Source: an uncultured Chitinophaga sp.
GTDB taxonomy: Bacteria; Bacteroidota; Bacteroidia; NS11-12g; UBA9320
Reading direction: 5' to 3'
Assembly: GCA_964355045.1 (NCBI GenBank)
Contig: CAYHCM010000002.1
Location: 10,565 to 74,564, forward strand
Length of the DNA stretch: 64,000 nt
Shown: in pieces, positions 2,861 through 62,928 of the stretch
Numbering within the stretch: the stretch's first letter is position 1
Layout of the letters: each line of letters starts with the position of its first letter
Position numbers and translations under genes: made by a program
The notes under the pieces: generated by a model
Seen by the model: only the letters and a program-made list of their open reading frames with translations
What the model was told of the DNA's origin: nothing
The model's database searches: none

Positions 2861-2993
2861 GAAATCGTAAATCGTAAAACTAAAATCTAAATTATTAAAA
2901 TGCATCCCCCTGCCCCCTTCGCCAATGCTCAATCCTTTGCGCAAGGGGGACATTCACCCGAAAAATTTGTTGTAATTTTGAAATCGTAAATCT
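2857..2993. repeat. 17-bp direct repeat TTTTGAAATCGTAAATC (2857-2873 and 2977-2993) flanking a GC-rich hairpin (~2913-2949, CCCCCTTCGC…GCGCAAGGGGG) in an otherwise AT-rich spacer.
   Basis: Both repeat copies and the hairpin read directly; the local GC island contrasts with its flanks; resembles an insertion with target-site duplication or a local duplication. Confidence 0.45.
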
Positions 2994-3004
2994 AAAATCG
3001 TAAA

Positions 3005-4077: not shown

Positions 4078-4713
4078 ATGAATCCTGAAACATCCTCAAA
4101 AGTAGCTCAATATTTATTGGAAGCCAAAGCTGTAAAACTTAATCCTGAAAATCCGTTTACATGGGCATCAGGCTGGAAATCGCCCATTTATTGTGATAAC
4201 CGATGGACACTTTCATATCCTGGAATAAGAAGTTATATTAAGAAATCGTTGGCTTTGGGAATAAAAGAAAACTTTCCGGAAGTTGATATTTTGGTAGGAG
4301 TAGCCACAGCCGGAATAGCCATTGGTGCTTTGGCTGCCGATGAGCTTAATTTGCCATTTGCCTATGCCCGACCAAAGCCCAAAGAGCACGGTTTGAAAAA
4401 TCAGATTGAAGGCAAGGTAGAAATTGGCCAAAAAATTGTGGTTGTTGAAGATTTAATTTCGACCGGAGGAAGCAGCCTTAAAGTGGTTGAATATTTAAGG
4501 GAAAACGGACACATAGTTTTGGGTATGGCCGCTATATTTACGTATGGTTTTGGTGTAGCCGATGAAAGTTTTAAAAAAGCCAATTGCCCGCTTTTAACAC
4601 TAAGCAATTACTCCATATTGGTTGAAGAGGCTTTAAAATCAGGGTATGTTTCAGAGCAGCAAATAAAAAGTTTGGCCGAATGGCGAACCAATCCATCTGT
4701 ATGGAATCAATGA
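4078..4713 (+). CDS. pyrE: Orotate phosphoribosyltransferase.
   Basis: PRPP-binding motif 'KIVVVEDLISTGGSS' and overall PyrE-like length and sequence. Confidence 0.85.
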   Translation: MNPETSSKVAQYLLEAKAVKLNPENPFTWASGWKSPIYCDNRWTLSYPGIRSYIKKSLALGIKENFPEVDILVGVATAGIAIGALAADELNLPFAYARPKPKEHGLKNQIEGKVEIGQKIVVVEDLISTGGSSLKVVEYLRENGHIVLGMAAIFTYGFGVADESFKKANCPLLTLSNYSILVEEALKSGYVSEQQIKSLAEWRTNPSVWNQ

Positions 4714-9679: not shown

Positions 9680-9850
9680 TCTGTTTTTGCATTAATCCTG
9701 ATGCAAAAATACAATAGTTTATATTACCAAAATACAAAAGTTTATTTTACTAAAATACAATAGTTTATATTGGCAATATAAACTATTGAGTTTTAGGTAT
9801 CTTTTTATCGTAATAAAATCTGAATAAATATTAGAAATCCGAAAATAGAA

Positions 9851-34898: not shown

Positions 34899-35092
34899 TG
34901 AGATGTGAGTACAGAGATTGTGAGAAATGTAACTTTGATAAATATATTATTTACCAAAATTTTTATTTCGAACATTTAAGTTCTCTATTATTCTCATTTC
35001 TCAAAGTCCCATATCTTTGAATTCATATCTCTGTACTCATATCTCTGTACTCATATCTCTTTACTCATATCTCTTTACTCATATCTCTGTAC
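34899..35092. repeat. 14-bp tandem repeat TCATATCTCT(G/T)TAC in 5 copies at 35023-35092 with a degenerate leading copy, plus an inverted copy (GAGTACAGAGAT) at 34899-34925.
   Basis: Read directly; lies between anmK and the dehydrogenase gene, immediately 5' of the AAATCTAAAATCGTAAATC motif. Confidence 0.7.
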
Positions 35093-35133
35093 CAAAAATC
35101 TAAAATCGTAAATCTAAAATCGTAAATCCCTAC

Positions 35134-44062: not shown

Positions 44063-44097
44063 AAATCTAAAATCATAAATCTAAAATCGCAAATCGA

Positions 44098-45535: not shown

Positions 45536-45550
45536 ATAATTTATTAACAG

Positions 45551-45579
45551 ATTTGACAACTTTTAAAAAGTTGTCAAAT
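45551..45579. terminator. Palindrome ATTTGACAACTTTT-AAAA-AGTTGTCAAAT between convergent gcvH and the GSDH-like gene; second copy of the element at 2831.
   Basis: Same 10-bp stem TTGACAACTT as at 2831-2855; followed by a T-rich stretch and a second hairpin (TACTTTTCCAAA…TTTGGAAAAGTA, 45603-45640). Confidence 0.5.
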
Positions 45580-45653
45580 CTAAATGGCTTTACGTTTTTT
45601 ATTTTTACTTTTCCAAATTTTTGCAACTTTGGAAAAGTAAAGAGCTAACATAC

Positions 45654-46883: not shown

Positions 46884-47294
46884 TTATCGAAATATATAAT
46901 TATCGGCACTCCATTTTCCGGGGCCTGAAATAAATAATGTTACATAAGCAGCCAAATAAAGAAATGCCAATTCACCATCGCCGAAAATATCGCCATTATG
47001 TGAATCAAAAGCAGCCACCATCATTGCAATTATTAAGGGAATTAACGCCAATCGGGTAAATAATCCTGAAATTAATAATAAGGCGCAAAAAAATTCAGCA
47101 CCAATAACCAAGGCCAATGAAATTTCATCGCCCAAACCTAAAAAATTCATAAAGTCACCCGACTTTTCGCTATAATTAATCAGTTTTTTATATCCATGCG
47201 GAACCATTATCAAACCGGCTGCTACCCTAAGAATTAATAGAGAAACGTTTAATCTTTGTTCAGAATGATTTGGCAATAAAAATTTTTTAAACAT
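46884..47294 (-). CDS. DoxX-family membrane protein.
   Basis: 'LLILRVAAGLIMVPHGYKKL' DoxX signature; 4 TM segments. Confidence 0.7.
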   Translation of the reverse strand: MFKKFLLPNHSEQRLNVSLLILRVAAGLIMVPHGYKKLINYSEKSGDFMNFLGLGDEISLALVIGAEFFCALLLISGLFTRLALIPLIIAMMVAAFDSHNGDIFGDGELAFLYLAAYVTLFISGPGKWSADNYIFR

Positions 47295-47348
47295 GTTTCA
47301 AAAGTAATAAATTTAGGCCCGATTTAAGAAAGCTGAAAATTAAAGTTA

Positions 47349-48242
47349 GGGAAAGCTTCGCTTGGAGCGAAGCCTTCCCTCAAAACCTTCCCTTTCCAAA
47401 ATGAAAACAAATATAAAACCCATGCAACCAGATGCCTTTTACCATGTTTATAATCGTGGAATCAATGGTGAGGATATTTTTAAAGAAGAACGCAACTACC
47501 CTTATTTTCTTCAAAAGTATGCTCTATTTTTAGACGGAGTTGCCGACACATATGCCTATTGTTTACTTAAAAACCATTTTTATCTTTTGATACAGACACG
47601 TTCAGAATAGGAAATTAGAGAGAGATTAAGGGGAAAGGGAATTTCAAAAAAGGAAGGCTTCGCTGTTTCCCCAAAGGAAGGCTTCGCTCCAAGCGAAGCC
47701 TTCCTTGCCCCACCAAGCGAAGCCTTCCTTAACCCATCAAGCGAAGCCTTCCTTAACCCACCAAGCGAAGCCTTCCTTAAAAAAACAAAACAGGATAAAC
47801 CAATATCCTGGATAATTGGGAATGCCTTTTCAAGTCTTTTCAAAAGTTATGCCCAATCCATCAATATATCCTTTGACCGAGCAGGTGGTCTTTTTGAAGA
47901 ACCATTTCGAAGAATTTTGGTAAATAGCGATTCCTACTTTACAGAATTGATATATTATATCCATCACAATCCACAAAGGCATGGTTTTGTAAAAGATTTC
48001 AGAGATTACCCTCATTCTTCTTATCATACTTTATTACATACTGCTCCAACCATATTGAAAAGAAATGAAGTATTAAATTGGTTTGGTGGTAAAAATGAAT
48101 TTGAAAAATTTCATTTAGAAAATCATATAATGGGAAATTTAGATAAATTTGAAATTGAGTTTGACTGAGGAGGTTGGTCAAAGGAAGGCTTCGCTCAAAG
48201 CGAAGCCTTCCTTAATGAACAAAGCGAAGTCTTCCTTTGAAA
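47349..48242 (+). mobile_element. REP/RAYT locus. It runs: REP hairpin (47349-47379); RAYT N-terminal half (47401-47610); an array of 24-bp REP-like repeats CCCACCAAGCGAAGCCTTCCTTAA plus hairpin (47635-47775); RAYT C-terminal half (47802-48168, a different frame); then REP hairpins (48184-48242).
   Basis: REP core GGAAGGCTTCGC/GCGAAGCCTTCC stems read directly. The N-terminal half 'AFYHVYNRGINGEDIF…YAYCLLKNHFYLLIQT' and the C-terminal half 'GNAFSSLFKSYAQSI…AGGLFEEPFRRILVNSDSYFTELIYYIHHNPQRHGFVKDF…HSSYH' are the Y1 HuH (TnpA_REP) motifs. Confidence 0.7.
47401..48168 (+). pseudogene. REP-associated tyrosine transposase (RAYT) gene, split by ~190 bp of REP repeats and a frame change; its HuH motif is altered to H-F-Y.
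   Basis: In-frame stop after 'LLIQTRSE' at 47610; the C-terminal half resumes in another frame at ~47802. Confidence 0.6.
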
Positions 48243-48268
48243 ATAAAAAAAACTATCTTTGCCGCCGA

Positions 48269-49912
48269 ATGCACCTTTTTAATAAGCACAAAGAATTAAT
48301 ATACGAAGCCGTTGAATCGCTTGCCAGTCGCAGTTTTCATACTGTTTATTATGATAATCCCAAAGAATATTCAGAACAGGAAAGTGGAGACGGTTTAGCC
48401 GCGTTTCAAGCAAGATTTAATACAAATTTTAACGATTTAAATGTTAAGAGTGATGAATGGGTGGGTGAAGAAGTTTCGCCTTATCTCCAAACAGGCCTTG
48501 GAATCCGCTATCCGTATTTACCTTTAGCATCGTTAATAGCCAATGCACATGAAGGCTGGAAATCATGGCGTCATATTGAAATGGATGAACGGGCAGGTAT
48601 TTTAACTGAAGCCCTCGAAAGGATTAAACTCCGTTTTTTTGAATTGGCTCATGCCGGCATGCACACCACAGGCCAGGGATTTATGATGGCTTTTCAAGCC
48701 ACCGGTCCGCATGCCTGCGACAGGGCATTGGAAGCCATAGCTGTTGGTTTTGATGAAATGAAACGTTTTCCGGAACAGGTGAAATGGGAAAAATGGGTTG
48801 GTTCAAAAGCAATTCCGGTTCGTAAAACATGGAAAGCAATTCCCAAAGGAATAAGTTTAGTTATAGGTTGTTCTACATTTCCAACCTGGAACAGTATGCC
48901 CGGCATTTTTGCGAGCCTGATTACAGGAAATCCTGTTATTGTTAAACCTCATCCCAAGTCGGTTCTTCCAATAGCCATAGTGGTAGCCGAAATACGAAAT
49001 TTATTAAAAGAATCAGGATTGAGAATGGATGCAATTCAATTAGCACCTGATACAACCGCTCATCCCTTAACAAAAAAATTGGCCGAACACCCTAATGTCA
49101 AATTAATAGACTATACGGGAAACAGCAAATTTGGAAATTATTTAGAAGCATTACTGAAGGTTACATTTACCGAAAAATCGGCCATTAATCCGGTTATTAT
49201 TGACTCAACCAATGATATAGAATCACTGGTAAACAATCTTGCATTCAGCATTTCATTATATTCAAGGCAGATGTGTACTGCGCCTCAAAATATTTATATA
49301 CCAGCTTCAGGAATTAAAATAACCGGAGGAACAGTAACATTTGAAGATTTTTGCGACCGGCTTAATGAAGCCATTAATAATTTATTAAATGCCAAATGGG
49401 GACCTTCAACTCTGGGATGTGTGCAAAATGATAACACATTGAAAATGGTAAAAGAGGTTTCAATGTCTTTAGGAACAACCTTAAATGAAGGCAAACCCTT
49501 TAAAATGCCTGAGTTTGAAAATGCCCGAACCCAGTCTATCAGAATATTGGCTGTGGATAGTGGCAAACAGGAAATATTTCAGCGCGAAATATTTGGACCC
49601 ATGGTATTTGTAATAAAAACAGAAAATACGGCGAAAAGCATTGAATTGGCTTTACGGGGCGCCGAACAATCGGGGGCAATAACCTGTTTGGTTCATAGCA
49701 CTGATTTTATGTTGAACAAGGAAATTGAAGAACAGTTTAATAACGCTTTTATTCCTGTATCATTCAATTTTGCAGGTCAGGTTTATGTTAATCAGCATGC
49801 CGCTTTTTCTGATTTGCACGGGTCGGGAGGAAATGCCTCAGGCAATGCTTCGTTTGTTGATCCCGGTTTTATTACACGGCGATTTGTTTGGATAGGCAAC
49901 CGTTATATGTAA
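48269..49912 (+). CDS. Aldehyde-dehydrogenase-family protein, PaaN-like. The ORF-track start at 48149 is an artefact that translates REP repeats; the likely start is 'MHLFNKHKELIYEAV…'.
   Basis: ~550-aa ALDH-superfamily architecture with catalytic-Cys region '…YSRQMCTAPQNIYIP…' and N-terminus resembling PaaN-type ring-opening aldehyde dehydrogenases; assignment to PaaN specifically is tentative. Confidence 0.55.
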   Translation: MHLFNKHKELIYEAVESLASRSFHTVYYDNPKEYSEQESGDGLAAFQARFNTNFNDLNVKSDEWVGEEVSPYLQTGLGIRYPYLPLASLIANAHEGWKSWRHIEMDERAGILTEALERIKLRFFELAHAGMHTTGQGFMMAFQATGPHACDRALEAIAVGFDEMKRFPEQVKWEKWVGSKAIPVRKTWKAIPKGISLVIGCSTFPTWNSMPGIFASLITGNPVIVKPHPKSVLPIAIVVAEIRNLLKESGLRMDAIQLAPDTTAHPLTKKLAEHPNVKLIDYTGNSKFGNYLEALLKVTFTEKSAINPVIIDSTNDIESLVNNLAFSISLYSRQMCTAPQNIYIPASGIKITGGTVTFEDFCDRLNEAINNLLNAKWGPSTLGCVQNDNTLKMVKEVSMSLGTTLNEGKPFKMPEFENARTQSIRILAVDSGKQEIFQREIFGPMVFVIKTENTAKSIELALRGAEQSGAITCLVHSTDFMLNKEIEEQFNNAFIPVSFNFAGQVYVNQHAAFSDLHGSGGNASGNASFVDPGFITRRFVWIGNRYM

Positions 49913-58846: not shown

Positions 58847-59209
58847 ATGAACTCTTTTAATTTATTGACGATGGAACCCAAAATGTATAACCTTGAGCAA
58901 ATAGAAATGATGTCGGAAGGCAATAATGAATTTGTTGACAAAATGGTTAACTTGTTTATTGAACTTACACCTGAACTATTAAACAGAATAAACACGGGTT
59001 TGATAGAAAACGATTATGACGAAATAAAATCGGCAGCTCATAAAATGAAGCCTTCCATAGATATGATGGGAATAGTTTCATTGAAAAACGAAATTCGAAA
59101 TATCGAAAAATTGGCACTCGACAGAGTGGATGTTGTAACTATGAAAAACGCTATTGTGTATCTGGAAACTACGTTAGGTCAGGTAATTAACCAATTGAAA
59201 AATCGCTAA
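58847..59209 (+). CDS. Hpt (histidine phosphotransfer) domain protein.
   Basis: Four-helix size; putative phospho-His 'SAAHKMKPS' motif; adjacent to the NtrC-like regulator. Confidence 0.5.
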   Translation: MNSFNLLTMEPKMYNLEQIEMMSEGNNEFVDKMVNLFIELTPELLNRINTGLIENDYDEIKSAAHKMKPSIDMMGIVSLKNEIRNIEKLALDRVDVVTMKNAIVYLETTLGQVINQLKNR

Positions 59210-62830: not shown

Positions 62831-62928
62831 TAGGTCTGCAATAAACGAAAAAGAATTTGATTTGGGAAAAAATGTTGATTTTAAACCTCCAAGGTTTTTT
62901 TAAACCTTGGAGGTTTTTATATATTTCC

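Follow-up and report, generated by a model that had tools for sequence, protein, structure and literature searches.

RAYTs and the REPs in and around their genes

The E. coli REP-associated tyrosine transposase (RAYT; TnpA_REP, yafM; PDB 4ER8) combines a HuH motif with a single catalytic tyrosine, and its gene is bracketed by hairpins of its cognate repetitive extragenic palindromes (REPs). A particular arrangement is known from a related subclass: Quentin et al. 2018 (PMC6006769) described REPs inserted in frame between the HuH and Tyr motifs of tnpA_REP genes of subclass 2.4, and placed these insertions in the variable β3/αC loop, considered peripheral and tolerated. In-frame REPs in RAYT genes are hence an already published phenomenon. 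The locus described here is found in an uncultured Chitinophaga sp. of the Bacteroidota, in a stretch of 64,000 nucleotides of contig CAYHCM010000002.1 (assembly GCA_964355045.1, positions 10,565 to 74,564; hereafter the window). A RAYT-family gene is flanked on both sides by palindromes and harbors an array of the same palindromes between its HuH and Tyr motifs. This locus is very probably a REPtron (a RAYT gene with its cognate REPs) from a RAYT lineage in which the cognate REPs are tolerated in frame inside the gene; the window's copy is decaying through point mutations and not through the array.

In-frame palindromes are also documented outside transposase genes. Di Nocera et al. 2013 (PMC3733652) reported that intragenic REPs and Rickettsia palindromic elements are tolerated in frame within loops of coding regions, often as dimers or groups encoding 20-30 amino acids. 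These cases concern unrelated host genes, whereas here the palindromes are located in the gene of the presumed mobilising enzyme itself, at the same site family-wide.

One reading frame through the REP array

The repeat unit of the locus is a 15-nt arm, AAGGAAGGCTTCGCT, together with its reverse complement; the full REP is a 33-nt perfect palindrome, AAGGAAGGCTTCGCT-NNN-AGCGAAGCCTTCCTT. Its core, GGAAGGCTTCGC, was counted on both strands of the 64-kb window: 11 copies are found at ≤1 mismatch, all inside 47348-48237, and one more, at 59045, is obtained when 2 mismatches are allowed, which makes 12. The chance level at ≤2 mismatches is 1.8 matches per shuffle, and 0 of 100 shuffles reach 12. 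Inside the gene, the Tandem Repeats Finder (TRF) reports 3.8 copies of a 24-nt unit at 47689-47780 (94% matches) and, at 47642-47688, two further units of the opposite arm; the arms are listed in Table 1. The perfect hairpins, one central to the array (47674-47706) and one 3' of the gene (48181-48213), have a folding energy of -17.6 kcal/mol (DNA parameters). A scan of the entire window against Rfam returned no family. The original prediction, made from the letters of the window alone, had recognized here a REP/RAYT locus in a Bacteroidota genome, with a 24-mer tandem array and REPs of the flanking type inside the gene. This much of it is borne out: repeats, flanking hairpins (47348-47380 and 48181-48213) and a RAYT-family gene are all present, and the same 15-nt arms occur in the flanks and between the HuH and Tyr motifs.

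The same prediction had the gene split by the array, with the C-terminal half in another frame, and this part has to be abandoned. A single frame, 47401-48168, holds the N-terminal part (MKTN...NHFYLLIQTRSE), the array (KEGFA...SEAFL units) and the C-terminal part (...ELIYYIHHNP...HSSY...EIEFD), the 24-nt period of the array being equivalent to 8 codons. Since both halves and the array share one frame, the array does not split the gene. The sole stop upon translation of this frame is a TAG, 39 nt upstream of the first array arm. An insertion of the REP array that broke the gene into halves of different frames might be suggested by the location of the array between the two called open reading frame (ORF) fragments, of 62 and 83 amino acids, and by the linker between the HuH and Tyr motifs, which in the window is the longest of 80 genes compared. 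Such an insertion is very unlikely in view of the common frame, of a sister haplotype with an identical array yet an open 255-codon ORF, and of intact homologues in which REPs and multi-arm repeats occupy this position in frame. The REP array is not the cause of the gene's decay.

The window allele is a pseudogene by way of two changes: a nonsense mutation, E70stop (G>T, GAG>TAG), and H61Y in the HuH motif. The motif reads NHFY instead of the NHFH found in 78 of 78 aligned intact homologues, which confirms the degenerate HFY motif noticed originally; the inactivation of this copy and the retention of the catalytic-Tyr region (YYIHHNP) by its C-terminal half had also been read correctly. The copy thus keeps the single catalytic tyrosine in its YIxxNP context. 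With respect to the 78 intact homologues, the changes P46G and H61Y affect invariant positions, and three nearly invariant positions deviate as well. The C-terminal part exhibits no frameshift and ~70% identity to intact homologues. No second RAYT copy was found within the 64-kb window.

Five contigs from at least three read sets, one of them from a different study, carry the nonsense allele, and the TAG is therefore not an assembly error. A gene that still functions, with a TAG that is erroneous or read through, or with two pieces that cooperate, would agree with the well-kept C-terminal part and with the GAG of the sister haplotype. It is nonetheless highly improbable: the read sets are independent, the TAG is linked to the loss of an invariant catalytic histidine (H61Y) and to the change at the invariant site P46, and the open sister allele carries H59Q, so that the HuH motif is intact in neither allele. 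Recoding or read-through of the TAG, considered as a candidate, was dropped for lack of support, the same allele also having H61Y and P46G.

A RAYT lineage beyond current profiles

A search with the read-through protein retrieved more than 1000 relatives of 204-274 amino acids with both halves in one ORF. The relatives are mostly from Cytophagales (Arcicella, Runella, Bernardetia, Microscillaceae), and several are labelled "putative transposase" or "RayT" in their sources. A profile search of 1.84 billion representative proteins yielded 979 clusters at 50% identity (E<=1e-30). Four motifs characterize the family: NHFH, RxGxLF[EQ]xPF[KR]R, YIHxNP and [YW]x[WYF]SSY. The first, invariant in the intact homologues, is found in 94-98% of 79 metagenome genes. 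The second motif carries E in 73% and Q in 23% of the sequences at its LF[EQ] position. In the Tyr motif, Y and N are conserved at 100% and P at 95%, while the x of YIHxNP is N in only 26%. The Tyr motif is followed by ~69 amino acids harboring the conserved [YW]x[WYF]SSY segment, the serines of which are present in 93% and 99%.

Pfam returned nothing useful for the two window halves or for the read-through protein. A hidden Markov model (HMM) of the family matches both parts (128.8 bits for the N-terminal and 217 bits for the C-terminal part). Two comparisons point to the RAYTs. A profile of 78 members compared with the sequences of the PDB identified only 4ER8, E. coli TnpA_REP, the alignment spanning the Tyr motif. 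When the AlphaFold model (predicted local distance difference test score, pLDDT, of 87.8) of P0001, the closest intact homologue, was submitted to Foldseek, 4ER8 was the top hit (E 2.4e-6). The fold is that of TnpA_REP, nearer to RAYTs than to the IS200/IS605 TnpA, despite a sequence identity to the E. coli protein of only ~13-15%. The HuH motif expected of a RAYT is present in the lineage but absent from the window copy (NHFY) and from the sister allele (NQFH). The gene belongs to a large Bacteroidota RAYT lineage that is missed by the current Pfam and NCBIfam models.

In-frame REPs in the HuH-Tyr linker

In the alignment, the array falls into a hypervariable linker that immediately follows the HuH strand. 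In the model of P0001, this linker extends between the HuH strand (E59-66) and a helix (106-128), and the REP-encoded residues 89-99 have pLDDT values below 50; the linker holding the REPs is thus predicted to be disordered in the closest intact homologue. Linker lengths range from 4 to 70 amino acids in 80 genes, the window, with 70 amino acids and six arms, being at the upper end. As linkers as short as 4 amino acids exist, the REP is dispensable for the fold.

The association between linker and palindromes was quantified in 79 genes (78 from two collection scans plus the window). Perfect hairpins with a stem of at least 9 bp are found in 17 of the 79 linkers, as compared to one N-terminal and one C-terminal domain. 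Likewise, 7.2% of the 10-mers of the linker have copies outside the gene, the corresponding values for the two domains being 1.1% and 1.0%. These outside copies are near the gene, 20-160 nt from its ends, in 25 loci; in 17 loci they are found on either side of it. Overall, in 25 of the 79 loci the palindrome inside the gene is the same as those at the gene ends, while its sequence differs from lineage to lineage. The linkers of the closest intact relatives read KETFASSEGFL, KEAFAPSEGFLKSAPSEGF and KEGFASSEAFL; those of more distant relatives are encoded by unrelated palindromes, e.g. AACCTGACAGGTTTTGAAAACCTGTCAGGTT and AGACCCTAAAGGTCT. Neither a fixed orientation of the REP relative to the gene, judged by its loop, nor a fixed codon phase of the palindrome was observed: TTG and CAA loops are about equally frequent and follow no rule within REPtrons, and the phase varies among lineages.

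The loci of four close intact relatives (P0001, P0005, P0012 and P0021; loci L189, L190, L199 and L201) display the complete succession of a REP, a gene with an internal REP, and a second REP. In the loci of P0001 and P0021, the perfect flanking hairpins have the core GGAAGCC/GGCTTCC where the window has GGAAGGC/GCCTTCC; this GG to GC change is matched in the opposite arm. The loci of P0005 and P0012 contain mixed variants, and mismatches are found in several internal and 3' copies.

Could the in-frame REP be a selected element, such as an autoregulatory site, an mRNA hairpin, or a protected "master copy" co-inherited with the enzyme? Lineages whose REP sequences are unrelated have perfect 15-bp stems at one and the same place in the protein, the internal hairpin persists in the clade down to ~54-64% protein identity, and both arms of the perfect flanking hairpins underwent compensatory changes, although the internal copies are often mismatched. 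The locus L017 (Emticicia sp. OTE_75, 1-900) encodes an intact RAYT homologue with a perfect internal GGAAGGCTTCGC hairpin, while its flanking repeats are of another type (AACGCTGGCAGGGTT...); internal and flanking REPs are hence not in every case of one family. A perfect internal hairpin between foreign flanks is at odds with a simple passenger model and keeps alive this minority reading of a functional internal REP. On the other side, many members possess short linkers (4-20 amino acids) devoid of any palindrome, linker length and arm number differ among close relatives, and re-insertion or gene conversion from dispersed copies explains the perfection and co-variation without a function; the published interpretation is also that of a tolerated peripheral loop (PMC6006769). 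A selected role for the palindrome is hence unlikely, and tolerance of the REPs in a permissive linker is preferred.

Two of the REPtrons mentioned above lie within restriction-modification loci. In L190 (7953-12047, Arcicella), the ORFs on either side of the REPtron, MmeI_Mtase/Eco57I and Type_ISP_C, may be parts of a split gene. In L199 (1824-6645), it is located between hsdS and hsdR, and an extra exact REP hairpin (4426-4454) is found inside the hsdR ORF.

The same hairpin in other genomes

The exact hairpin (GGAAGGCTTCGC-N3-7-GCGAAGCCTTCC) was searched in 185,579 species genomes and found in 108 stretches of 40 assemblies, 38 of which are Bacteroidota, mainly Emticicia, Arcicella, other Cytophagales and Chitinophagaceae. 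The 108 stretches come from other genomes, as a blastn comparison of the window with these loci gave no match. The copies have unrelated surroundings, and in every case the full unit is the 33-nt palindrome. Among the 102 hairpins evaluated, 87 (85%) are outside long ORFs, versus 21% of random positions. Their median distance past the nearest stop codon is 30 nt, and the genes on their two sides are mostly convergent or co-directional. This extragenic placement is the classical distribution of REPs, at a low copy number that accords with the low abundances of 16-mers published for RAYT groups 1 and 4 (PMC5581495). The flanks of 115 hairpins extend the palindrome by AA/TT, AC/GT or AT/AT, with neither GTAG nor GTGG, and GT[AG]G is absent also from the REPs in the linkers of the homologues.

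Their position downstream of stop codons, the AA/TT flanks and the low copy number are features that ordinary host hairpins, such as bidirectional terminators, would also exhibit, in which case the palindromes would merely surround an unrelated gene and have no REP/RAYT relation. This is extremely unlikely: an identical sequence of 29-33 nt is found at more than 100 unrelated sites in these 40 assemblies, whereas we estimate from base counts that fewer than 0.1 chance matches to its 24 specified bases are expected in 596 Gb; the internal and flanking palindromes change together from lineage to lineage in the 25 loci mentioned above; and the protein possesses a TnpA_REP fold.

Several observations weigh against the reading of the locus as a REPtron of a RAYT lineage tolerant of its own REPs. 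With at most 13 exact-hairpin stretches per assembly, and 4 in one contig of 5.7 Mb, the palindrome has a low copy number in related genomes, and within the 64-kb window no REP copy is found outside the RAYT locus. The 5' GT[AG]G foot recognized by E. coli TnpA_REP is missing. The established profiles are approached but not reached: the best homologue scores 16.6 bits with Pfam Y1_Tnp (PF01797; gathering score 23), and the family scores 42-54 bits with NCBIfam REP_Tyr_transpos (NF047646; cut-off 80). The discrepancy between internal and flanking repeats in L017 is not predicted by a simple "local hopping" of the flanking REP. Lastly, that H61Y would abolish activity is deduced from the invariance of this histidine in the 78 intact homologues.

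Two haplotypes with different lesions

The divergent DoxX-family gene next to the RAYT gene was used as bait and led to matching contigs in public assemblies. The source contig among them, ENA ERZ4201064 NODE_313 (64,480 nt), is at least 99.97% identical to the window. A sister contig, ERZ4201065 NODE_7497 (L192), is 99.93% identical over 10.8 kb; it exhibits the identical six-arm array but a GAG in place of the TAG, resulting in an uninterrupted 255-codon ORF.

The window and the sister contig differ at 8 positions over these 10.8 kb. Three of the differences are within the last 130 nt of the sister contig, which is of low coverage. The five others (47577, 47581, 47608, 48053 and 48103) are all inside the RAYT gene, and its flanks, ~9.9 kb, are identical. 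By our own arithmetic, the chance that all five would fall into a gene of 768 nt is ~2e-6 if they were distributed randomly over ~10.7 kb. All five are nonsynonymous (window to sister: H59Q, Y61H, stop70E, I218K and E235K). When polarised on the family consensus, H61Y, E70stop and K218I were gained by the lineage of the window, and H59Q and E235K by that of the sister. The HuH histidine lost thus differs between the two haplotypes: the window reads HFY and has a stop, the sister reads QFH in an open frame. This clustering may stem from selection against the nuclease when active, or from mutagenesis localized around the hairpins. An adenine-specific signature like that of diversity-generating retroelements was considered and rejected, since the substitutions share no one signature: one lineage acquired C>T, G>T and A>T, the other T>A and G>A.

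Comparison with the described RAYT subclasses

The family shares several traits with subclass 2.4, or group 4 of the RAYT classification of Bertels (PMC6006769): REPs both flank the gene and are inserted inside it with the frame kept, and the loop that receives them is very variable in length and contains short repeats. The variable β3/αC insertion with in-frame REPs, by which the subclass can be recognized, is found here. Subclass 2.4 also occurs in Bacteroidetes, among other phyla, with a low REP copy number (PMC6006769, PMC5581495). The differences are nevertheless marked. Where subclass 2.4 has WQ and YIxNNP motifs (Table 1 of PMC6006769), the present family has LF[EQ] and YIHxNP; it possesses a conserved SS extension at its C-terminus, which subclass 2.4 lacks; its REPs are footless, as compared to canonical long or "double foot" GT[AG]G REPs; and, unlike subclass 2.4, it does not reach the Pfam Y1_Tnp threshold. 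None of its REP cores is listed in Table S1 of Quentin et al. (PMC6006769).

Other traits are reminiscent of subclasses 2.1 and 2.6 (Bertels groups 1 and 5; PMC6006769): an NH[YF]H motif, a second motif of FQ type, Y[IV]H.NP and a C-terminal "SS". Subclass 2.6 is specific to Bacteroidetes and flanked by "atypical secondary structures" that recur in the genome; the combination of a C-terminal SS extension with atypical hairpins recurring in Bacteroidetes genomes is also encountered here. Neither subclass has been reported with REPs inside the gene, 2.1 being reported without REPs, and the extra domain of subclass 2.6 is placed between αC and β4, whereas the present linker is between β3 and αC. 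By its motifs the family looks more like subclasses 2.1 and 2.6 than 2.4, in a comparison with their published descriptions.

E. coli TnpA_REP shares with the present lineage the HuH motif, the single tyrosine and the bracketing by cognate hairpins, but its REPs are of another kind. They are imperfect palindromes starting with a 5' GTAG and present in hundreds of copies (bacterial interspersed mosaic elements, BIMEs). Those described here have perfect 15-bp stems, 3-nt loops and no GTAG, with a few to ~13 exact copies per genome. Furthermore, the E. coli gene contains no internal REP, unlike the present one.

A proposed route for REPs into their own gene

By analogy with E. coli TnpA_REP and with IS200/IS605 transposases, an active enzyme of this lineage would bind the hairpins of single-stranded REP DNA, its tyrosine serving to cut and rejoin them. 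REP units would in this way land in the enzyme's own gene, or duplicate within it. Only insertions that keep the frame and fall into the permissive linker would survive; units of 33 nt and of 24 nt both keep the frame. In the window, the linker has grown to six arms, after which the allele was inactivated by the point mutations H61Y and E70stop. The original prediction had suggested here an enzyme "caught" with its substrate inserted into it, a picture that does not hold, in-frame REPs being a described and tolerated trait of tnpA_REP genes (PMC6006769).

Neighboring genes and other repeats of the window

The features of the locus are collected in Table 1. Downstream of the RAYT gene, an open frame of 40 residues (48149-48268) runs through the 3' REPs, overlapping the end of the RAYT gene, and joins the gene of a PaaN-type aldehyde dehydrogenase. 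The N-terminal extension of this dehydrogenase was rightly suspected of being an artefact of the REPs: the PaaN profile starts only at residue 42 of the mechanically derived ORF, in keeping with an ATG at 48269. The public call of the PaaN gene (583 amino acids) contains the REP-derived extension, and the public calls cut the RAYT gene into "hypothetical proteins" of 62 and 83 amino acids.

Table 1. Features of the RAYT locus and its neighbors (positions in the window)
Feature	Position	Strand	Remarks
DoxX-family membrane protein gene	46884-47294	-	Divergent upstream neighbor
5' flanking REP hairpin	47348-47380		AGGGAAAGCTTCGCT-TGG-AGCGAAGCCTTCCCT; 15-bp stem, one A/C mismatch
RAYT-family (TnpA_REP-like Y1 HuH) pseudogene	47401-48168	+	ATG 47401, TGA 48166-48168; 255 codons, single frame, one TAG
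HuH motif codons N58-H59-F60-Y61	47572-47583	+	Second His changed to Tyr (TAT); family consensus NHFH
In-frame TAG, codon 70	47608-47610	+	GAG (Glu) in sister haplotype; Glu in most homologues
Internal REP array, HuH-Tyr linker	47650-47778		Six 15-nt arms, 24-nt period, in frame
Internal array, forward arms	starts 47650, 47674
Internal array, reverse arms	starts 47692, 47716, 47740, 47764
Central perfect 33-nt hairpin of internal array	47674-47706		15-bp stem, 3-nt loop
Catalytic-Tyr motif YYIHHNP	47953-47973	+	Y186 aligns with YIYINP of E. coli TnpA_REP
Conserved C-terminal HSSY ("SS") motif	48013-48024	+
3' flanking REP, perfect 33-nt hairpin	48181-48213		15-bp stem, 3-nt loop
Extra reverse arm after 3' hairpin	48223-48237		Degenerate, 1 mismatch
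PaaN-type aldehyde dehydrogenase	48269-49912	+	TIGR02288, 558 bits; profile starts at residue 42 of mechanical ORF

The window contains further repeats. The 33-nt format with a 15-bp stem and a 3-nt loop recurs in a second family of perfect palindromes, at 2827-2859 and 45549-45581 (A[AG]ATTTGACAACTTTT-NNN-AAAAGTTGTCAAAT[TC]T). Its core is that of the in-gene REP of a metagenomic RAYT homologue (L156); no corresponding RAYT is present in the window. At 62883-62916, a third palindrome of this format (AAACCTCCAAGGTTT-TTTT-AAACCTTGGAGGTTT) resembles the in-gene REPs of three other homologues (L141, L146 and L166). Arrays of the heptads AAATCGT / AAATCTA are located at 2862-3004, 35095-35133 and 44063-44097, directly upstream of three ATG starts; they are preceded by a hairpin at two sites and look like a repeated leader or promoter-like motif. 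At 35010-35092, a 14-nt tandem repeat (CATATCTCTGTACT, 5.9 copies) adjoins one of these heptad arrays. Finally, a 23-nt tandem repeat (2.9 copies) at 9706-9788 ends with a hairpin with a 14-bp stem (CAATAGTTTATATTGGCAATATAAACTATTG).

Significance for the RAYT family

In a more far-reaching version of these findings, an uncatalogued, Pfam-invisible Bacteroidota RAYT lineage of ~1000 clusters at 50% identity, separate from the one subclass for which REPs in its own gene have been reported, would keep its palindrome under selection, as an autoregulatory site or master copy, while the enzyme would be under recurrent selection for inactivation. Taken as a whole, this version is unlikely. The pair of haplotypes nevertheless provides natural material for asking whether RAYT activity is selected against.

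Nothing in this locus alters how the system is understood. At the level of annotation, it illustrates how gene callers split a RAYT gene and stretch a neighboring PaaN gene through REPs, and since the whole family is without a Pfam domain, these REPtrons go unlabelled in Bacteroidota genomes. For the family itself, the locus extends a published oddity, REPs in frame inside their own transposase gene, to a lineage with other motifs and with REPs devoid of GTAG. The trait of in-gene REPs is probably not limited to one subclass.

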